Shown here: positions 1 through 41,408 of the stretch, piece by piece
Numbering within the stretch: the first letter of the stretch is position 1
Layout: every line of letters starts with the position of its first letter
Source of the DNA: Vicinamibacterales bacterium
Lineage (GTDB): Bacteria; Acidobacteriota; Vicinamibacteria; Vicinamibacterales; 2-12-FULL-66-21
Direction of reading: 5' to 3'
Assembly (NCBI GenBank): GCA_036258055.1
Contig: DATAEK010000013.1
Location: 1-41,564 of the forward strand
Length of the DNA stretch: 41,564 nt
The notes under the pieces: model-generated
The model's database searches: none
What the model was told of the DNA's origin: nothing
Seen by the model: only the letters and a program-made list of their open reading frames with translations
Translations under genes and position numbers: made by a program

Positions 1-109
1 ATGAGCGGAACGCCGAGAATACTCGGGGAACCGATCAAGTAATTCCCTTTCCGAACAGGAGATGCAGAGATCAGGAGCCCAGAATGCTCCTGATCTCCTG
101 ACCTCCTGC

Positions 110-871
110 TCAATGGGTCAAACCGTAGATCACGTAGTTGACGCCCAGCTTGTACGCCTCGTTCGATGCGTCGAACGGGAAGATCCCCTGGCCCGACCAC
201 TCCCAATACTCCGGGACGTCGTTGTCGTAGTTGGCGACGACCATCAGTCGCTTTGATGGATCGTTGTCCTCGAAGAGTCCGTAATAACTCGGACGAATGC
301 CGGACATCGGATGCACAATCGCGTCGATGTCGTTGATCCGAAAGAACGAATCGAAGATGCGCTGCGTGTGGTCGAGCTTGACGAACCGGGCTTCCGGGAG
401 CACACGGCGCATCTGTGCTTCGAAGTGGCTCCACTGTTGTGCACCGTCGAAGTCTTCGAACACGGCGAAGCCGCCCTTCAACAGGTAGGCACGAAACGAC
501 TCCGCTTCACGATCGGTGAGATTCCAGAAGCCGGGCTCCCACATGAACGCGATGGGGTAGTTGAACAGCTCGGGATCGTCGAGCGTGAGAACCAGGCTGG
601 CGTCAGCGCGGATGTCGAGGGCCGTCAGCTCTCTGAGGATCAGCGACAGGTGTTGTTCGGCGCGAGGATAGTCGTGATTCCAGGCCGAGCTGAAGCCCCC
701 GCGCCGGAACGAACCGCCGTCTGACGTCCACCGCAGCCGTACAAACGTGAAACGGCCGTCGTAGCTGAGATCGGTCCGATGCGGCTGGCCGAGCGCATCG
801 AACTGCGCGGTTGCCGCCATGGCCGCGCTGAACACGACGGCGAGAGCGATGTCCAGCCATCGACGACGCAC
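110..871 (-). CDS. DUF4159 domain-containing secreted protein
   Basis: 253-aa ORF with an N-terminal signal-like hydrophobic stretch (LDIALAVVFSAAMAATAQ). Overall sequence resembles the DUF4159 family as recalled; no catalytic motif recognised. Confidence 0.5.
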   Translation of the reverse strand: MRRRWLDIALAVVFSAAMAATAQFDALGQPHRTDLSYDGRFTFVRLRWTSDGGSFRRGGFSSAWNHDYPRAEQHLSLILRELTALDIRADASLVLTLDDPELFNYPIAFMWEPGFWNLTDREAESFRAYLLKGGFAVFEDFDGAQQWSHFEAQMRRVLPEARFVKLDHTQRIFDSFFRINDIDAIVHPMSGIRPSYYGLFEDNDPSKRLMVVANYDNDVPEYWEWSGQGIFPFDASNEAYKLGVNYVIYGLTH

Positions 872-2215: not shown

Positions 2216-2679
2216 CAGTGGGCTCCTTCGGGCTCGAGAAAGATCATCAGACGATCCACGCGTACGACGCGGCAGCGCTGTCCGCGCGTGATGGTCACAG
2301 CCGCGTTGTTGCGGGCGGACCAGACGGTGCCGCGCAGCTCCGCGCGGCCGACTTCACCAGCGGGAATGTCGTCGATCGGCACCGCAGTGTCGTTGAGCAG
2401 CGAATCGACGTCGGGCGCCGGCGTATCGAGCTTCATCCATCGCAGCAGCGGATTCCTGAAGAGGAGCAGCGATCCAATCGACAGCACCGCGAAGAGCAAC
2501 AGCTGCACCCATGCTGGGCCGGCGAGATTGACGAGCCGCAGGAGGCCGATCGTGATCGCGGCCACGCCGAAAAAAATGACGTAAAAGCCGCCCGCCGACG
2601 CCAGTTCGAGCGTGATCAGGATGAGCCCGAGCGCCAGCCACTGCCACCAGTGCAGGATCATGAGGGGAGGCGGCGCCAT
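2215..2679 (-). CDS. NfeD-family membrane protein (stomatin operon partner)
   Basis: 154 aa with 3 N-terminal TM helices and a C-terminal OB-like beta domain (GEVGRAELRGTVWSARN...). Classic nfeD-stomatin gene pair with a 1-nt overlap. Confidence 0.8.
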   Translation of the reverse strand: MAPPPLMILHWWQWLALGLILITLELASAGGFYVIFFGVAAITIGLLRLVNLAGPAWVQLLLFAVLSIGSLLLFRNPLLRWMKLDTPAPDVDSLLNDTAVPIDDIPAGEVGRAELRGTVWSARNNAAVTITRGQRCRVVRVDRLMIFLEPEGAH

Positions 2680-2728
2680 TGTAGCCCAAGCGCCCGCGGC
2701 TGCAGGACCAGAGTCACGTCGCGTCCGG

Positions 2729-2748
2729 CTTCAGCCGGACCCGCGGTC
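2729..2748. repeat. Short palindromic hairpin element GTCCGGC-TTCA-GCCGGAC, copy 1 of 3 related copies
   Basis: Perfect 7-bp stem with a 4-nt loop read directly from the sequence. A ~35-bp related sequence recurs at 29195-29232 and a similar hairpin at 30644-30663, all at 3' ends of genes. Confidence 0.5.
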
Positions 2749-2761
2749 CGCATGAAGGACG

Positions 2762-3412
2762 CTACTTACCCACTTCCACTCCCACCGGGCAGCTCACGCC
2801 CGTTCCACCAAGGCCGCAGTAGCCGTCCGGGTTCTTCGCCAGGTACTGCTGGTGGTAGTCCTCGGCGTAGTAGAACTCCGGCGCGGGAAGGATCTCAGTC
2901 GTGATCTTGCCGTAGCCGCGCCTGGACAGCTGTTCCTGGAAAACTTCGCGCGTTCGTTCCGCCGCCGCGCGCTGTTCGTCGTCGAAGTAGTAAATCCCCG
3001 AACGATACTGCGTGCCGAAATCGTTGCCCTGCCGCATGCCCTGCGTTGGATCGTGGTTTTCCCAGAACGTCTTCAGCAGAGAGTCGTAGGAAATCTTCGC
3101 GGGGTCGTAGACGACGAGCACGACCTCGTTGTGGCCGGTCATGCCCGTGCATACTTCGCGATACGTCGGGTTGGGCGTGAACCCCGCAGCGTAGCCGACC
3201 GCGGTCGTGAATACGCCAGGGAGCCCCCAGAACATTTTCTCTGCGCCCCAGAAACAGCCCATGCCGAAGATCGCCTGCTTCAGCCCGGCGCTGAACGGCC
3301 CTTCGAGCGGGGCGCCGTTGACGTAGTGCTGTGCCGGCACTTCCATACGCTCGGCGCGGCCCGGCAGAGCCTGATCCCTCACGGGCATCTTCATCTTCTT
3401 GTCGAGAAACAC
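2762..3412 (-). CDS. msrA: Peptide-methionine (S)-S-oxide reductase MsrA
   Basis: GCFWG active-site motif, plus the conserved FWENHDPTQ and [10 protein letters not shown] blocks. A GTG start at 3412 is preceded by a strong SD (AAGGGAGG, 6-nt spacer); the internal ATGs lack an SD. Confidence 0.9.
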
Positions 3413-3430
3413 ACTCGGCCTCCCTTCTTA

Positions 3431-3538
3431 TTGAGGATTGATGAGTGCTGATTGAGGATCGCTGGTTGTGGATTTCTGAATTGGGGATCCCAACAATCCA
3501 CAACCAGCGATCTTCAATCAGCCTTCATCAATCCTCAA
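3431..3538. repeat. Large near-perfect palindrome: 44-bp arms (41/44 matching) around a 20-bp central loop that is itself quasi-palindromic (TTGGGGATCCCAA)
   Basis: Left arm 3431-3474 is the reverse complement of right arm 3495-3538 with 3 mismatches. The region is conspicuously AT-richer than its surroundings. It lies between the stop of the GT-C gene and the start of msrA. Confidence 0.7.
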
Positions 3539-3547
3539 TCGACACCC

Positions 3548-5176
3548 TTATCGTCCCGTCGGGACGGGCAGGTCGTCAACGATCTTCAGCACCGCCGCCG
3601 ACAATGCGTCGCGGCTCCTGACCTGGAGCAGCACGGGCACGAGACTCCTGAGCGCCGGGTATTCACGGTCGGTGATTCGCGAGAGCGCGCCAGTGTCTCC
3701 ATCCCATCGCAAGACAATCACCGGCGCTCCTGTGTGCTGATCCTGCCATGTCTGCAGGATTCGGCGGGTATCGTCAACCCACTGATTGCGGCAGCAGTGG
3801 AGCAGCCACGGGGAAATCAGGAATACACGCGTGGTCAGATCGACCCTGGTGTAAGGCGGCTTCAGTGGAAACGGCATGGCCCATTCCCAGCTCAGCTTCG
3901 GTGCTCCGATGACGATCAGGCTCCCGGGCGGCGCCGACAGCGCCTCCGCACGAGTGTCGAGCAGCACCTTGCGCGACACTTTCGCCAGGGTGTTCCAGGT
4001 CGTGACCTCTTTGTAGAGCCCGGTGCTGTAGAAGATCACGACGGCTGACGCGACGGCAAGCACCGCCCGGCGCCGCGCCACGCCGATCGCGCCGGTCCAG
4101 GCCAGATCGAATACGACGCCGAGGACGATTGCCCACCCCGCGGACGCGAGATACACGTGGCGAGGCGATTCGTAACCGGCGACGGCAATCGGCAGCACGC
4201 CGATCGCCCACCACAAGGGACCGAAGAACAGCACCACGCGGGCGAGACGCCGCCGCTCGCCGGCGATGCGATGCCTCGCGAGCCACCAACCCAGCACGGT
4301 CGTCGCTGCGAGCACGCCCCAGGTGACCACCGCGCCGGCGTTCACGTTTCCGGTAACGACGCGCGCGAGGTGGCGCTCGATGAGCACGAAGAAGTAGTGC
4401 AGGCCCTCCGAGTTGAGTTGTCCTTCACGCGCCACCTGGCCGAAAAGCACGTAGCGGAGCCACATGTACGCCATCGTCATCAGCACGAACGGCACGTAGG
4501 GCCTGACCCAGCTCCAGGTCGGGCGCGCCGGCCGATTCGACAGCAGCACATCCCACGCCACAAGCGTCGCAACCATCGTGATCGTCGTTTGCTTGGTGAA
4601 AAGCGCGGCGAAAAACAGCGCGAGCGATCCAACGTACAACCGTGAATCGGTGGCGCCCTTCTCGCGCCACCTCGCGTATGCGACGAACGCGGCGATGTAG
4701 AACAGCGCCGGCATCGAGTCGACACGTCCCGTGATCCAGGCGACCGTCTCCGCCTGAACCGGCAACAGGACGAACACGGTCGCAGCAAAAACCGACGACG
4801 TGAGGCTGAGGCCGGCCAGCCATCGCGCCATCAGCAGCACGAGCAGCCCGGTGGCCGCGTGCAGCGCGACGTTCATGGCGTGGTGCAGGAACGGAGACGC
4901 CGCGCCGCCAAGTGCGGTGATCTGGTACGACACGGCCATGAACGGGCGCACCTCGTCGGCGATGTCGCCCCAGATCCGATCCGTCCACGGTGTGTAGAAC
5001 CAGCGCGGAAAATACGACGCCGGCTTGGACGCCAGGAGTTCGACGACCCCAAAGTCGTCGCGGACGAAGTAGTTGTTGAGCGTCGACGCGTACGGCAGGA
5101 GCGCCGCCAGGCAGACGACGAGCGCGGCCGCGAGCACTCGGCTGGACAGCGCGCCGCGGCGATCCATCGTGGTCAT
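3548..5176 (-). CDS. GT-C fold membrane glycosyltransferase (GT39/ArnT/PMT-like), polyprenyl-phosphate-sugar dependent
   Basis: About 543 aa from the ATG at 5176 (MTTMDRR). The longer ORF drawn to 5548 is rejected as read-through into the upstream gene. Many TM helices, an FVRDDFG acidic motif in the first loop, and a C-terminal soluble domain. Start overlaps the GT2 stop (ATGA). Confidence 0.5.
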   Translation of the reverse strand: MTTMDRRGALSSRVLAAALVVCLAALLPYASTLNNYFVRDDFGVVELLASKPASYFPRWFYTPWTDRIWGDIADEVRPFMAVSYQITALGGAASPFLHHAMNVALHAATGLLVLLMARWLAGLSLTSSVFAATVFVLLPVQAETVAWITGRVDSMPALFYIAAFVAYARWREKGATDSRLYVGSLALFFAALFTKQTTITMVATLVAWDVLLSNRPARPTWSWVRPYVPFVLMTMAYMWLRYVLFGQVAREGQLNSEGLHYFFVLIERHLARVVTGNVNAGAVVTWGVLAATTVLGWWLARHRIAGERRRLARVVLFFGPLWWAIGVLPIAVAGYESPRHVYLASAGWAIVLGVVFDLAWTGAIGVARRRAVLAVASAVVIFYSTGLYKEVTTWNTLAKVSRKVLLDTRAEALSAPPGSLIVIGAPKLSWEWAMPFPLKPPYTRVDLTTRVFLISPWLLHCCRNQWVDDTRRILQTWQDQHTGAPVIVLRWDGDTGALSRITDREYPALRSLVPVLLQVRSRDALSAAVLKIVDDLPVPTGR

Positions 5177-8753: not shown

Positions 8754-9800
8754 TCACTTCGCCAGGTACTCGTCGAGCGAGGCCCGCCTGACGCGGTACG
8801 AGGTTCCGATCTTCTTCGCCGCGAGCTCTCCGGATTCGATGATCGTCATCACGTCGGACTCGGGCACCCCCAGCGCTTTCGCGACATCCGCCGGTGACAG
8901 CAGATCTGGCAGCGTGACCGCCGCCGAGGCCGCCGACGCCGCGGCTGCGCCGGGCATCCCCTGCTGCTGCATGATCTGCTGGGCGATCGACAGGCCGACA
9001 GCCAGCTCGGTCGCGGCGCCGCCCGAGCCTCCGCCCTTCTCCATTCCCTGGGCCATTTGGAACTTCACGTAGTCGTTCAGATTGCCCACGGCCGCCATGC
9101 TCGATCGTTTGTCGATCGCCGTCTCCACTTCGGGTGGCACCGAAACGTTCTCGACGATGAAGCTGGCGACCTCGAGACCGTACTTCGCGAGCACCACCGG
9201 GTTGATGATCGGCAGCAGCGCCTCGCCAAGCTCGGTGTAGCGGCTTGCGACGTCGAACACCGGGATGTGGGCGGACGCGAGCGCGTCGGCGAAGATGCTG
9301 ACGATGCGCGAGCGCATCGTGTCGGCGAACTCGTCGAGGCGGAAGTTCTGATCGGAGCCCGCGACTTCCTTCAGGAACAGCTTCGGTTCCTTGATATGGA
9401 AGTCGTAGGTGCCAAACGCGCGCACGCGCACGATCCCGAGATCGTTGTCCCGCACCATGATCGGGTTGGCGGTCCCCCACTTGTTCCCCGTGAACAGCCG
9501 GGTGTTGAGGTAGTAGACGTCCGCCTTGAAGGGCGAGTTGAAGCCGTACTTCCAGGACTTCAGCTTGGTGAGGACCGGGATGTTGTCGGTCGTCAGCGTG
9601 TGTTTGCCGGGACCGAACGTGTCGCCGAACTCGCCGAGGTAGATGAACTGGACCTGCTGCGATTCGCGCACGATCAGCTGCGCGCCGTTCTTGATCGCCT
9701 TGTCGTCGTCCGGGTAGCGAAAAGAGAGCGTGTCGCGCGAGTCGTCGGTCCACTCGATGACGTCGATCAGCTCGCCCTTGATGAAATCCATCAGACCCAT
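8754..9800 (-). CDS. SPFH-superfamily protein of the COG4260 type (YdjI-like) with a C-terminal excisionase/MerR-type helix-turn-helix
   Basis: The N-terminal ~250 aa match the COG4260/SPFH family as recalled (MGLMDFIKGELIDVIEW..., YYLNTR, FRVRAFGTYDF). The C-terminus (ADVAKALGVPESDVMTIIESGELAAKKIGTSYRVRRASLDEYL) fits the excisionase-family HTH consensus. Confidence 0.7.
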   Translation of the reverse strand: MGLMDFIKGELIDVIEWTDDSRDTLSFRYPDDDKAIKNGAQLIVRESQQVQFIYLGEFGDTFGPGKHTLTTDNIPVLTKLKSWKYGFNSPFKADVYYLNTRLFTGNKWGTANPIMVRDNDLGIVRVRAFGTYDFHIKEPKLFLKEVAGSDQNFRLDEFADTMRSRIVSIFADALASAHIPVFDVASRYTELGEALLPIINPVVLAKYGLEVASFIVENVSVPPEVETAIDKRSSMAAVGNLNDYVKFQMAQGMEKGGGSGGAATELAVGLSIAQQIMQQQGMPGAAAASAASAAVTLPDLLSPADVAKALGVPESDVMTIIESGELAAKKIGTSYRVRRASLDEYLAK

Positions 9801-9878
9801 CGGCGTTCCCTCTCCAGAAATTCTGATACTGTACCGCGCGGGCGTGAAATCAGCTCAGCGTATTGTAGTCTCTCGCCG

Positions 9879-10973: not shown

Positions 10974-12371
10974 ATGAAGCCGGCGATGCCCGTTCTGTGC
11001 GTGCTCCTCACCGTCACGACCACCGCAGCCTGGCCGGCTGCCGGTGAGGACCCGGGGACGACGACGCGCCCGCGCGCCGCTTCTGCGCCGCGAGTTCGCG
11101 AAGTCCGGTTCGAGGGGGATCCTGCGCTCGAACCCGACACGCTGAAGAAGGTGCTGAAGGAGCTCGAGATCCGGCGCGTGATTCCCGGCATCTGGACGCG
11201 ACGGCCGCGGTACGAGGCTCGCGCCGTCGAAGCGGATCTCGTGCGGCTCCGCTCGTTCTATGTCTCGCATGGCTACTTCGACGCGCGGGTCGGCCTCGGC
11301 GGCGTAACAGTCGATCGAGGCGAGGCGATCCTGACACTCGAGGTGCAGTCGGGCCTCAAGTACTCGGTGCGCCGCGTCGAGATCGATGGGATCGACGGTG
11401 AGCACGTGAAAACAGCGAGTGACTCGAGCGGTGAATTCCCCGCTGACGCGCTCTGCGCGTGCCTTCTCGATGCCAGACGAATCGCTGAATCACGCGGCCG
11501 GCTTGATTTCGCGGCGGAACTGGAGGTCTCGCACACCGATGCCTCGGCGCCGTCCGATACCAGCAGGACGTGGGTGGACGTCACCGCCCGCGTGCCGACG
11601 GGATCCGCGTATATGGTCGGCCGTATCAACTTCACGGGCCACCACCGGGTCAGCGAATCCACACTGCGCCGGGCGATGGTTCTGCAGGAGCGCTCGCTGT
11701 TCGATGTCGGAAAGCTCCGGCGCAGCCTCGCAAGACTGAATCGGTCCGGCTTGTTCGAGCCGCTCACGCTGCATGACGTCGAGGTCCGGAGGAATCCCGA
11801 CACGCTCACCGCCGATCTGACGATCGCCGTCCGCGAGCAGCTTGGCAGGAGGTGGTTGGTGTCCGGCCCGCTTGGACCTGCGGCCTTCGGCGGATCGCTG
11901 CAGGCCGCCATCTCGTCACGCCTGCCCCCGTGGGGCCGCGGTCTCTTCGAAGCCTCGACGTATTACCTGACGTTCAGTCTGATAGGGTTTTCGGCTCCGC
12001 TGGTCCGTCTGCTGCCGATTGGTGTACGACCCACTCCGCCAGCGTTGCTCGTCCTGGAGCGCCCCTACCTTCCGGGTCAGGCGCTGTTCTCAGGCTTCGC
12101 GCTCTCGCCGCAGCTTTCCGCGCGCACACTGCTGGCGGACTACGGGCTGACACATCTCGATTCCGCAATGCGGGCGGCGCTGTTCGGAGAACCGCCTGAC
12201 TCCTCGAGCCTGCTGATTCCGATATTGGGGCCTCACTCGAGCGGGGTCGCCGGCGGATCAGAAGAGGCCCGGCTCCTCATGTGCAATCCGCCGCCGCCGC
12301 GCCACCCGCGGCTGCGACGTGGAGCCGCGATCGCGGTCGATCAGGCGCTCCGCGCGTTTCGCCCTTTTTGA
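10974..12371 (+). CDS. POTRA-domain protein (BamA/FtsQ-like POTRA repeats, no full beta-barrel)
   Basis: Signal peptide, then POTRA-like repeats (VREVRFEGDPALEPDTLKKVLKEL; YSVRRVEIDGIDG; YMVGRINFTGHHRVSESTLRRAMVLQERSLFD). Only ~160 aa follow the last repeat, too short for a 16-strand barrel. Confidence 0.5.
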   Translation: MKPAMPVLCVLLTVTTTAAWPAAGEDPGTTTRPRAASAPRVREVRFEGDPALEPDTLKKVLKELEIRRVIPGIWTRRPRYEARAVEADLVRLRSFYVSHGYFDARVGLGGVTVDRGEAILTLEVQSGLKYSVRRVEIDGIDGEHVKTASDSSGEFPADALCACLLDARRIAESRGRLDFAAELEVSHTDASAPSDTSRTWVDVTARVPTGSAYMVGRINFTGHHRVSESTLRRAMVLQERSLFDVGKLRRSLARLNRSGLFEPLTLHDVEVRRNPDTLTADLTIAVREQLGRRWLVSGPLGPAAFGGSLQAAISSRLPPWGRGLFEASTYYLTFSLIGFSAPLVRLLPIGVRPTPPALLVLERPYLPGQALFSGFALSPQLSARTLLADYGLTHLDSAMRAALFGEPPDSSSLLIPILGPHSSGVAGGSEEARLLMCNPPPPRHPRLRRGAAIAVDQALRAFRPF

Positions 12372-12378
12372 GGTCAAC

Positions 12379-12798
12379 CTACGCGGAAGGCTCGAACTTC
12401 AGCGCAACGCCATTGATGCAGTAGCGCAGGCCGGTGGGCGGCGGACCGTCCGGGAACACGTGCCCGAGATGTCCTCCGCACCGGCTGCAGTGAACCTCGG
12501 TGCGCGTCATGAAGAAGCTCCGATCGGTCGTCGTCCCGAGCGCACCGTCAAGCGGCGAGAAAAAGCTCGGCCATCCTGTGCCGCTCTCGAACTTCTTATC
12601 CGCGATGAAAAGCGGCTGCCCGCACGCAACGCACGCAAACGTGCCGGGACGATGTTCGTTCAGCAGCGCGCATGACCCCGGACGTTCCGTGCCGTGGCCG
12701 CGCATCACGTCGTACTGCTCGGGTGTCAGGATTTTCCGCCACTCTTCTTCCGATTTCACGACCTCGAACTGGGTTGCCTTGTCCGTCATGCCAGTCAA
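12379..12798 (-). CDS. msrB: Peptide-methionine (R)-S-oxide reductase MsrB
   Basis: Two CxxC zinc motifs (CVACG / CSRCGGHLGHVF) and the catalytic RYCINGVAL motif, in 139 aa. Confidence 0.9.
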   Translation of the reverse strand: MTGMTDKATQFEVVKSEEEWRKILTPEQYDVMRGHGTERPGSCALLNEHRPGTFACVACGQPLFIADKKFESGTGWPSFFSPLDGALGTTTDRSFFMTRTEVHCSRCGGHLGHVFPDGPPPTGLRYCINGVALKFEPSA

Positions 12799-19483: not shown

Positions 19484-19562
19484 TCCGTGCCTGAGGTGCC
19501 TGGGTGCCTAAGGAGCCAGAGTGCCTCGGTGCGAAGGTGCCAAGGGCGCGAGGGTGCGCGCG
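19484..19562. repeat. Octamer-period tandem repeat tract (GGTGCNNN)n, copy 1
   Basis: gtgcctga/ggtgcctg/ggtgccta/aggagcca/gagtgcct/cggtgcga/aggtgcca/agggcgcg/agggtgcg. A second tract with the same unit lies at 41343-41408. It sits between the coxL-like start and the MEDS gene stop. Confidence 0.7.
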
Positions 19563-39632: not shown

Positions 39633-40697
39633 TTATTTGAGACGCCAGCTCAGCGCCGTCGCGGCGAGGATCCGATACGAGTACTCGTAGTAGTTCTCGA
39701 TGCGATGGAAACGCGCGGAGGCGGCGAGGATGACACCGGGAACAACCTTGAACGTGCGGGTCAGACCGACTTCGGCGTAGTCGCGTACGCCGCCGTATCG
39801 CGTGCCGTCGCGGCGGAGGGAGTGGTAGTTGCGGTCTCCCTCTTCCGTCACGAAGTCGTCCCCTCGCCACACGATAAGATGACCCCGGAAGCCGCTGTAC
39901 TCGACGGCTCCGCGCGCGAGAAACGCCGCGCCTCTCTGGGTCCTCGACGGCCGGCTGCGATCGGGCACGAATCGCGCGGCGAGACCGAACGCCTCGAGCG
40001 TCGTGATGACGCGGGCCCGCTCCTCGAAACGGATGCCGGCGGCACCGCTGAAGCTGTCCGCGACCGGGCCTGACGAGAAGAGCTGTCCACCCTGGTGGAC
40101 GATGAACAACTGGATCGGCAGCGTGAGATGCGATCCCAGCTTGAGGTCCCCGTTCATGCCCGCGTCGAACCGCTCGCGATGTTCCGGTGTGTTGACCTTC
40201 TGCCAGTCGAGCCAGATCTCGTGGCGCAGACGATTGCCTGAAAACGTCCACGCGAATCCCGCCTCGTAGGGGCGATCGAACGAGAGCGTCTCGCGCTGGA
40301 GCGGTGGCAGGAGGGCGTGGGGACCGTCGAGGTCAGGACCGCCGAGCGTGCCGGCTCGCGAAGGCGGCAGCGTCCCGAACACGAATCGCGATCGGTGGCC
40401 GCGAATCGTCAGCGCCACGATCGGCCTCACGAGCTCGAAGGCATCGTCGGATCCGAAGCGCTGATTGGCGAACACGCCGAGCTCGAGGGTGGCGCGATCG
40501 GCGATCGATGCCTCGACGCTGACGCGTGGCGCGGCGCCGAAGATTGTCTCCCCCTCACGAAACGGGTTGCGGAACTCGGTGTTGTCGCCGTAGAACAGGA
40601 TGTCGGTCCGGAGCGCCACATGATCTTGCGCCCGTATTTCCGTACTTCCGACGATTGCGATGAGAGCTGCGAGCAGCACGCCGGCGCGGCGACGCAT
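39633..40697 (-). CDS. Secreted/outer-membrane hypothetical protein (possible beta-barrel)
   Basis: 354 aa with a signal peptide (MRRRAGVLLAALIAIVGSTEIRAQD). Alternating beta-strand-like segments and a C-terminal aromatic-containing strand (ATALSWRLK). Confidence 0.4.
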   Translation of the reverse strand: MRRRAGVLLAALIAIVGSTEIRAQDHVALRTDILFYGDNTEFRNPFREGETIFGAAPRVSVEASIADRATLELGVFANQRFGSDDAFELVRPIVALTIRGHRSRFVFGTLPPSRAGTLGGPDLDGPHALLPPLQRETLSFDRPYEAGFAWTFSGNRLRHEIWLDWQKVNTPEHRERFDAGMNGDLKLGSHLTLPIQLFIVHQGGQLFSSGPVADSFSGAAGIRFEERARVITTLEAFGLAARFVPDRSRPSRTQRGAAFLARGAVEYSGFRGHLIVWRGDDFVTEEGDRNYHSLRRDGTRYGGVRDYAEVGLTRTFKVVPGVILAASARFHRIENYYEYSYRILAATALSWRLK

Positions 40698-41331
40698 GTG
40701 CCTAACGATATCGCACCGCCATTGCGCGGTCCTTCCACGCGTCGCGCTTCTTGCGGTGCTGGGGGTGAGTGTCTTCAGCTCGGTCGCGTCCGCTCAGGCG
40801 ACGACAACGCAGACACAGACTGCTCCGCCGTCGACGTCAGACGATCCGTTCGCCCGGCACGCCTGGCGCTTCGAGATCGATTCCGAAATTGCCAGCGAAG
40901 CGTGGAACTACAACGGATCGCGTGAAGAGATCTATGGCCTCGAGGCGGGCTTCGCCTACGGTCTTCACCGGGGCCTGATGCTCAGGACGACGTTTCCCGT
41001 TCGCTACATCTCGCAACGGGGGATTGACGCGCTTCAACTCAGCGCCACGTTCGGCTTCCGGGGGCGCGTCGTCGGGTCCGCCCGCGCCGCGCTGTTCTGG
41101 CAGTTCGACCTCGGCGTGTCATTCGCCGATACGCTGGCGCCCCGGCGCGGCACGAGATTCAACTACCTGGCGCTCGGCAGCGTCGGCGGAACATTCCGGC
41201 TTCGAGGCGATATCTACGGCGTGACCGCGCTCCGGCTGCTCCATCTCTCGAACGCCAGCCTCGCCGGCCCGAACAGAAATCCTGACATCGAAGCCATCGG
41301 TATCCAGGTCGGGGTGGGGTGGGGGTTCTAG
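40696..41331 (+). CDS. PagL-like lipid A 3-O-deacylase / acyloxyacyl hydrolase family outer-membrane protein
   Basis: Signal peptide followed by a small beta-barrel-like protein ending in a PagL-type catalytic motif (LHLSNASLAGPNRNPDIEAIGIQVGVGWGF, i.e. H-x-S-N). Its start codon overlaps the divergent gene's start by 2 nt. Confidence 0.5.
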   Translation: MCLTISHRHCAVLPRVALLAVLGVSVFSSVASAQATTTQTQTAPPSTSDDPFARHAWRFEIDSEIASEAWNYNGSREEIYGLEAGFAYGLHRGLMLRTTFPVRYISQRGIDALQLSATFGFRGRVVGSARAALFWQFDLGVSFADTLAPRRGTRFNYLALGSVGGTFRLRGDIYGVTALRLLHLSNASLAGPNRNPDIEAIGIQVGVGWGF

Positions 41332-41342
41332 CACCTCTTGTC

Positions 41343-41408
41343 GGTGCCTGGGTGCCTGGGTGCCAAGGGTGCGAGGGTGCGAAGGTGCTCGAGGTGCAAG
41401 GGTGCCTA
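41343..41408. repeat. Octamer-period tandem repeat tract (GGGTGCNN)n, copy 2
   Basis: tcggtgcc/tgggtgcc/tgggtgcc/aagggtgc/gagggtgc/gaaggtgc/tcgaggtgc/aagggtgc. Four GGG runs separated by 5-6 nt loops. Intergenic, between convergent genes. Confidence 0.7.

Follow-up and report, generated by a model that had tools for sequence, protein, structure and literature searches.

The window, a 41.5-kb stretch of DNA, carries a palindrome of about 110 bp in the spacer between a membrane-protein gene and msrA. The organism belongs, by homologues of its membrane protein, to the Vicinamibacterales (Acidobacteriota), and the samples are farmland soil; members of this order are abundant in soil and very few have been cultured. 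The neighbouring genes all lie on the minus strand, in the order epimerase, methyltransferase, GT2 glycosyltransferase, 542-aa membrane protein, palindrome, msrA and an NfeD/SPFH pair; the genes ahead of the palindrome, ending with that for the membrane protein, are referred to here as the glycosylation operon. The polytopic membrane protein (3548..5176, minus strand, no Pfam hit) ends at a TAA stop codon at 3550-3548, and msrA (2762..3412, minus strand; PF01625, E 1e-64) begins at a GTG at 3412-3410, preceded by the Shine-Dalgarno sequence GGGAGG at 3424-3419. This start is backed by an N-terminus, (M/V)FLDKK, that is conserved in two relatives (L003 and L004). Read along the minus strand, the palindrome starts 8 nt past the TAA and ends 5 nt ahead of GGGAGG and 17 nt ahead of the GTG. 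We find that it belongs to a class of heptamer-repeat hairpins that changes fast and fills many spacers of the Vicinamibacterales.

A palindrome built of degenerate heptamers

The inverted repeat has arms of 45 nt each (3430-3474 and 3495-3539), which lie 20 nt apart and are complementary at 42 of 45 positions (93%); no other inverted repeat of this size occurs in the window. A first-pass annotation, made by reading the sequence, had given two 44-bp arms with 41/44 complementary positions, and re-inspection changes this description hardly at all. The same annotation placed a GATC at the axis. A GATC is indeed present in the centre (3486-3489), within the mini-palindrome GGGATCCC (3484-3491), although the outer arms have their axis (3484.5) 3 nt away, so that its placement holds only approximately. 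The palindrome is also, as had been remarked, richer in AT than its surroundings, with a GC content of 44.5% as against 0.6-0.7 in the flanks and 64.8% in the window as a whole.

What the first-pass annotation overlooked is the internal anatomy of the arms, as well as their membership in a lineage-wide class. Each arm is a degenerate tandem array of 6-8 heptamers of the form ATTGnnG. The left arm (3430..3474) reads ATTGAGG ATTGATG AGTGCTG ATTGAGG ATCGCTG GTTGTGG ATT, that is, six full heptamers and the start of a seventh, with 17 G and 3 C. The right arm (3495..3539) is its reverse complement with three mismatches and reads, on the minus strand, ATTGAGG ATTGATG AAGGCTG ATTGAAG ATCGCTG GTTGTGG ATT. 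Within the centre (3475..3494), the mini-palindrome is accompanied by one extra unit (TCTGAAT) on the left side, and the arms therefore differ by an insertion or deletion of about one unit length beside the loop. Units in the arms hold GG at most, and the sole GGGG of the palindrome is found in the centre. Autocorrelation of the arms peaks at lags of 7, 14 and 21, with values of 0.63, 0.71 and 0.75 (shuffle p<1e-4); in shuffles, a value as high as that of lag 7 is reached somewhere in the range of lags 3-12 with a probability of 5e-5. TRF assigns the array a period of 14. The heptamers inside one arm are only 61-67% identical to each other, against a complementarity of 93% between the arms. 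It follows that either the inverted duplication took place after the units had diverged, or some process has kept the arms in step.

Either strand of the palindrome folds into a single long stem-loop, interrupted by a bulge of 5 nt and closed by a loop of 3 nt. Folding of both strands, a check that the first-pass annotation had proposed, gave strong structures each way: -82.7 kcal/mol for RNA of the minus strand (z-score -11.2) and -79.4 kcal/mol for RNA of the plus strand (z-score -12.9). As DNA, the palindrome folds at -48.9 kcal/mol (z-score -14.5), and in none of the three cases did a shuffled sequence reach an energy as low. The palindrome is not an artefact of assembly, since it is seen in two further independent assemblies, L001 (ENA) and L002 (Logan), and a JGI contig has the identical 135-nt gene spacing at the site. 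The GT2 glycosyltransferase gene was likewise seen in identical JGI and Logan contigs. In L001, two adjacent bases are changed in one arm of the palindrome, with no compensating change in the other.

A strong stem-loop right behind a stop codon could be taken for the canonical Rho-independent terminator of the glycosylation operon. The stem of this one, however, is 45 bp long and AT-rich (44% GC) rather than short and GC-rich; it is followed by AAGAAGGGAGG, with no U-run, and there is no T-run on either side. A scan of positions 2500-4500 returned 0 terminator-like sites, and we find such a terminator scarcely credible here, in line with the early remark that the structure is far larger than an ordinary intrinsic terminator. 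The same scan found no sigma-70-like promoter. The whole window gave no match to Rfam 15 at gathering score, and a permissive search near the palindrome produced only sub-threshold matches to generic hairpins (miRNA precursors).

The orthologous site in relatives

Using alignments of the membrane protein, we gathered 21 syntenic Vicinamibacterales genomes, in which the spacer at the orthologous site ranges from 28 to 589 nt. In the three relatives L003, L004 and L005, whose flanking membrane protein is 80-82% identical to that of the window, gene order is kept and the content of the site differs. L004 is empty, with a spacer of 28 nt; in L003 the spacer is an unrelated one of 112 nt that contains small hairpins; and L005 has an array of the octamer GGTGCCAGG (GGTGCC) right behind the stop codon (L005 2146-2177). 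The 8-nt spacer GGGTGTCG (3540..3547, minus strand) that separates the membrane-protein stop codon from the palindrome in the window may, judging by its letters, be a decayed unit of this GGTGCC array. A second empty allele is found in L046.

When a long hairpin is defined as an ungapped stem of at least 18 bp with at least 80% of positions paired, 9 of the 21 genomes carry one in this spacer, compared with a baseline of 15% for tandem spacers (binomial p 0.002, uncorrected for phylogeny). Among these nine, the arm unit differs in almost every lineage. The hairpin is built of GGCTCAG in L014 and L015, of GGTTCAR in L017, of CGAGCGC in L006 and of GACGAAG-type units in L011, which also form the outer layers of nested hairpins in L012 and L063; some hairpins at the site thus lie one within another. 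L010 has inverted GGCTCAG arrays that fall below the long-hairpin threshold. The proposal that relatives be checked for the element at this locus therefore has a negative outcome, as the ATTGnnG palindrome is not conserved and its place is taken by empty, unrelated or other-unit spacers. We read the palindrome as a lineage-specific, recent gain between the last gene of the glycosylation operon and msrA, and not as a conserved regulatory site.

Among the options of the first-pass annotation were a recombination or protein-binding site and a cruciform-forming regulatory element. A specific DNA site of this sort, whether an operator or cruciform for an msrA regulator or a site of recombination, could draw on the length of the palindrome and its position immediately upstream of msrA, and on a TTGAGGAT-like motif with 5 occurrences in the element and 13 across the window, where 4.1 are expected. 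The excess of the ATTGAGGAT motif in the window stems from the palindrome itself, however, and the repetition of the motif is the heptamer array under another name. Moreover, the element is missing from relatives with the same gene order, similar hairpins stand behind unrelated genes, and the scan of 2500-4500 offers no promoter-like site. With the site in relatives empty, unrelated or filled by an array of other units, we regard a dedicated msrA operator or recombination site as very improbable.

A class of arrays and hairpins across the Vicinamibacterales

The palindrome can be placed in a wider setting by statistics from 1.14 Mb of sequence from about 60 Vicinamibacterales genomes. Seven is by far the commonest period of tandem repeats in this sample, with 145 arrays of at least 2.8 copies; non-coding sequence makes up roughly 11% of the sample and holds 100 of them. 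Among the periods that are not multiples of a triplet, period 8 ranks second. There are 90 distinct 7- and 8-mer units. Among neighbouring arrays, 20 of 45 pairs are inverted pairs of one unit. Of the intergenic spacers that measure 40 nt or more, 19-28% contain an array of 7- or 8-mers, regardless of the orientation of the flanking genes. Long hairpins are distributed differently, occurring in 18% of convergent, 15% of tandem and 5% of divergent spacers (Fisher p 0.0014), at a median of 13.5 nt past the upstream stop codon and 63.5 nt short of the next start. Of 70 such hairpins, 42 have a 7- or 8-nt periodicity in their arms. A test of the hairpins for a following U-tract was negative (on average 1.8 T among the 10 nt that follow), and the class as a whole does not consist of canonical terminators, because no T-run comes after them.

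These figures bear on the possibility that the palindrome is a selected RNA stem-loop, kept to terminate, insulate or stabilise the operon transcript ahead of msrA, with a structure that matters and a sequence that is free to turn over. The enrichment of long hairpins in this very spacer speaks for it, as do the position of hairpins near stop codons and their scarcity between divergent genes; arm complementarity (93%) far exceeds the likeness of the units (61-67%), and repetitive extragenic palindromic (REP) elements provide a functional precedent. Against this, no U-tract follows the palindrome or the class, close relatives have empty alleles, the 2-nt change in L001 is uncompensated, and a hairpin of the same family sits within the gcvH/gcvP operon of another contig (L107, see below). 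Arm mismatches in tandem spacers, read on the sense strand, are balanced, with 42 of the G.U type and 45 of the A.C type, so that the G.U type is not in excess. Direct arrays are found in either orientation to transcription without bias (25:20). Together, the balance of mismatches and the unbiased direct arrays give no sign of RNA-level selection on pairing, and we consider a selected stem-loop a possible, if doubtful, account of the palindrome.

A polarity is apparent in the class. Across 65 Vicinamibacterales loci (L003-L066 and the window), the G-rich arm is the 5' arm in 35 of 40 periodic hairpins (p 1.4e-6), whereas non-periodic hairpins have no such bias (15:10). The window palindrome and all ATTGnnG hairpins obey this rule. 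As a sequence followed by its own reverse complement, X...rc(X), reads alike on both strands, the polarity is independent of the direction of transcription. It points to the mechanism by which foldbacks form, or to some constraint acting in both directions.

Dispersal of unit families

Outside its own locus, the ATTGnnG unit is found at unrelated loci in two other metagenome-assembled genomes, as a partial hairpin in L016 and as direct arrays in L021, which repeat the unit run of the window, ATTGnnG ATTGnnG AGTGCnG ATTGnnG. A metagenome scan for four consecutive ATTGNNG units left about 27 usable contigs, mostly of high GC, after telomere-like matches were removed. In at least 12 high-GC contigs the array is paired into a hairpin as its 5', G-rich arm; a stop codon is 1-5 nt away in several cases, and the hairpins vary in the number and order of their units and in the loop. 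One of the contigs, L107, has a hairpin of (ATTGCGG)5 at 3830-3940, 4 nt past the stop codon of gcvH and just ahead of gcvP; a foldback of the ATTGnnG family thus lies inside an operon that is normally co-transcribed. The matches set aside are runs of (ATTGGGG)n in opposite orientation at both ends of many short contigs (L086-L205), mostly from two JGI sample groups, which resemble telomeres of the ciliate type and are unrelated.

A second family, GGCTCAR, is found as hairpins at three unrelated loci in several genomes, with four units per arm and a common inner stem, CAAGAYCTTCGAG, that is not itself a repeat. Most copies have the inner stem GCAAGAYCTTCGAG ... CTCGAAGGTCTTGC, and several begin directly at a TAG stop codon. 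They were located at 4195-4310 and 11620-11735 in L014, 2855-2965 and 4225-4355 in L012, 7015-7130 in L011, 7005-7120 in L050, 2885-3005 and 4095-4205 in L052, and 11505-11630 in L015. By their sequences, these hairpins look like a dispersed family of the REPIN kind (hairpins formed of two inverted REP units). Since the inner stem is shared and non-repetitive, slippage alone is insufficient to account for them, and a copy-and-paste mode of spread is hinted at for at least the GGCTCAR family.

Could the palindrome itself be a non-autonomous mobile element, of the REPIN type or a miniature inverted-repeat transposable element (MITE), moved in trans by a transposase encoded elsewhere, with the heptamer arrays as its terminal inverted repeats? 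Presence and absence at the site are polymorphic, different families occupy it in different genomes, and hairpins are nested. The GGCTCAR hairpins share units and the inner stem CAAGAYCTTCGAG at three unrelated loci, ATTGnnG hairpins occur in many unrelated contigs, and the termini of REP elements likewise abut or supply stop codons (PMC3733652). The palindrome itself is a poor fit, however. It has no second exact copy in the window or in 1.1 Mb from relatives, and its plus-strand flanks, CCCTTCTT before and CGACACCC after the element, contain no direct repeat that would represent a target-site duplication. It bears neither a GTAG nor a CGTC tag, hairpins of its family differ in unit number, order and loop, unpaired direct arrays of the same units are common, and annotation of about 30 window genes with Pfam identified no transposase and no integrase. 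A metagenome scan with the arm 21-mer GARGATCGCTGGTTGTGGATT gave 0 matches, which says little on copy number because the source population itself is missing from that collection. The MITE suggested at first pass is therefore not borne out for this copy by target-site duplication, a window transposase or the search for further copies of the arm, and we hold a mobile element of this type to be unlikely.

Other arrays and features

The window contains further members of the class. At 53..111, octamers of CAGGAGAT form a hairpin whose 26-nt arms are 81% complementary, right behind the stop codon of a DUF4159 gene (110-871, minus strand); the same octamer unit stands behind the membrane-protein gene in the relative L036. 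Two direct, unpaired arrays of GGTGCCWG are found on the plus strand, one of 8-9-mers at 19487..19558 and one of octamers at 41343..41407, the latter behind the stop codon of a plus-strand open reading frame (40660-41331). These two arrays are 22 kb apart, and in L020 (7344-7486) GGTGCCWG forms an inverted pair.

Nested hairpins of up to three layers, in which arms of one unit family surround arms of another, occur in L029 and L066 (1466-1601) and in L012 (about 11630-12030). Such nesting suggests growth or insertion at hairpin centres.

Arrays can also precede genes. TTCAGCA is repeated in 6-7 copies in L012 (1701-1793), L014 (1889-1930), L052 (1782-1830) and L064 (5952-5999), ahead of the Shine-Dalgarno sequence of an orthologous gene (N-terminus MGLMDFIKGELID; Band_7_1 and HTH_17 in the window), and this position in the 5' untranslated region (5'-UTR) is conserved across genomes. 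A TATAAT box lies just upstream of the array in L012, L014 and L052. The window orthologue has only a remnant of the array (9800-9870).

Upstream of msrA, a leader of about 25 nt, GCGTCCAAACTGTGGGAnACTGAG, is conserved in L011, L012, L013, L014, L045, L050, L063 and L064, and not in the clade of the window. In L017 and L046 the msrA start is directly preceded by a TCTATACT box, and a leaderless transcript may be read from this arrangement. The msrB (SelR) gene of the window (12379-12798) shares its strand with msrA at a distance of 9 kb and is found beside two trypsin/PDZ protease genes, in an ordinary chromosomal context. No tRNA genes were found in the window.

Discussion

On balance, and with a confidence only somewhat above even, we favour the view that the palindrome is an extragenic foldback element of degenerate tandem heptamers, with an origin at the level of DNA and, at most, REP-like effects on transcripts. 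A foldback element was among the options of the first-pass annotation, and that one fits. The best-supported part of this view is the identity of the element as a recently gained foldback of heptamer repeats. The balanced arm mismatches, the unbiased direct arrays and the polarity of the class speak for the DNA-level origin, and the placement of long hairpins near stop codons and seldom between divergent genes is like that of REP elements. We propose that arrays of 7-nt units would arise and change by replication slippage, and that they would become and remain palindromic through intrastrand template switching or the copying of whole foldback units. Slippage combined with template switching or foldback copying would lead to unlike units in complementary arms, to the one-unit difference beside the loop and to a G-rich-first polarity that is independent of strand.

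As for its effects, an element transcribed with the minus-strand genes would form a very stable stem-loop with some 45-50 bp, located 8 nt past one stop codon and 5 nt before the Shine-Dalgarno sequence of msrA. Most probably it would behave as REP elements do; by this analogy, the structure might act as a barrier to 3' exonucleases, shielding the upstream message, and it might serve ahead of msrA as a partial, context-dependent attenuator or processing site. It would be neither a canonical intrinsic terminator nor an msrA-specific operator. Insulation between the operon and msrA, as first suggested, is plausible in this generic, REP-like sense only.

Several considerations weigh against this foldback account. 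All of its effects at the RNA level are ones that we infer from REP elements, and the balance of G.U- and A.C-type mismatches, the empty alleles in L004 and L046 and the uncompensated 2-nt change in L001 suggest that selection on pairing is not strong, so that the element may even be without function. The recurrence of the same units at unrelated loci goes beyond what slippage alone explains, and the inner stem common to GGCTCAR hairpins at three loci points to copy-and-paste spread, which favours a mobile element. In addition, the class statistics were obtained with a crude gene caller based on GC at third codon positions, and the copy count of the exact palindrome is that of 41 kb of the source genome.

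It is tempting to go further and to imagine a dedicated, sequence-specific system, in the Vicinamibacterales and in other high-GC soil bacteria with ATTGnnG hairpins, that writes or spreads polar foldbacks right behind stop codons. Such foldbacks would have their G-rich arm first and heptamers of five conserved and two variable positions, and the enzyme or binding factor involved is hypothetical. The result would be a genome-wide layer at gene 3' ends, comparable to that of REP elements and their associated tyrosine transposases (RAYTs) and different in its building principle, with the window palindrome as one of many copies. We rate this as quite improbable.

For the locus itself the outcome is a deflating one, as the palindrome is no conserved msrA switch and is of modest interest. 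The class is more interesting than the locus and, above all for its G-rich-first polarity, merits a dedicated study. In the sampled genomes, arrays occupy about a fifth to a quarter of spacers, more than half of long hairpins are built of arrays, gene 3' ends are preferred by the hairpins and orthologous sites turn over rapidly. We expect that this class can serve as a comparative system both for origin, by slippage with template switching or by copy-and-paste, and for effect, in the form of REP-like tuning of neighbouring genes. On the practical side, elements of this kind will mislead predictors of terminators, small RNAs and MITEs in metagenome-assembled genomes.

Comparison with known systems

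Extragenic hairpin repeats behind stop codons, in tandem and convergent spacers, are familiar from the REP elements, bacterial interspersed mosaic elements (BIMEs) and REPINs of Enterobacteria and Pseudomonas. These too are variable in presence between strains and can sit inside operons, and REPINs, as hairpins of about 100 nt made from two inverted units, are comparable to the palindrome in form. A REP is an imperfect palindromic unit of 20-40 nt with a terminal GTAG or CGTC tag, and its termini often abut or supply stop codons (PMC3733652). For one of them, REP325 of E. coli, two effects were shown, partial termination that depends on Rho and stabilisation of the mRNA upstream (bioRxiv 10.64898/2026.03.23.713779). 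The palindrome, in contrast, has no such tag, its termini being ATTGAGG and CCTCAAT with minus-strand flanks GTCG and AAGA, and its arms are internally repetitive heptamers. Moreover, REPs exist in hundreds of near-identical copies linked to a RAYT, while of the palindrome one copy was found in 41.5 kb and none in 1.1 Mb from relatives or in the metagenome scan with the arm 21-mer; no RAYT gene is found in the window.

Heptamers in tandem are known from other bacteria. The TAACTGA direct repeats of marine Beggiatoaceae and cyanobacteria (MacGregor 2015, PMC4679880) consist of one heptamer in short tandem arrays, present in many intergenic regions with no evident mechanism of mobility, and those in 5'-UTRs resemble the TTCAGCA arrays that we see in relatives. 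They are almost always direct, oriented and located just upstream of start codons, with one inverted case (PMC4679880), whereas the palindrome is an inverted pair behind a stop codon. In the work cited in two of these studies (PMC4692102, PMC4679880), an excess of heptamer repeats in bacterial genomes is noted from 2007 onward, with no function or mechanism assigned. Our literature search found no paper that links Acidobacteria to heptamer repeats, REPINs or RAYT-associated repeats of this kind; one paper mentions acidobacterial Y1 transposases flanked by terminal inverted repeats (TIRYTs).

The closest precedent lies in a different phylum, in the GGGAATC repeats of Xanthomonas, to which the heptamer repeats of Nostoc and Calothrix (GGGGATT; short tandemly repeated repetitive sequences, STRR) are related. 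Xanthomonas genomes measure about 5 Mb. In both systems, tandem and often heterogeneous 7-nt units with conserved and variable positions are located between genes in genomes whose GC content is about 65%. Two arrays on opposite strands converge, with the G-rich array first, and are capable of forming a stem-loop; they are fewer between divergent than between convergent genes, and a given locus varies strongly in length and sequence among close relatives. X. campestris and X. axonopodis contain about 186 arrays of these heptameric simple sequence repeats per genome (Rehm et al. 2015, PMC4692102). Between 70 and 75 convergent inverted pairs could fold into stem-loops, vary between close relatives and are rarer between divergent genes (PMC4692102). 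There are also differences, in that the unit of the palindrome is ATTGnnG and AT-rich, the Vicinamibacterales carry about 90 different units where Xanthomonas has one dominant unit, and array density is higher here, with about one heptamer array per 8 kb as against 186 per genome. A G-quadruplex of the Xanthomonas style is not an option for the palindrome, as its units have no tracts of three or more G. Apart from the capacity to form a G-quadruplex, the palindrome has the defining features of the Xanthomonas type, and it thereby joins a known, if poorly understood, kind of element, the inverted pairs of heptamer repeats.

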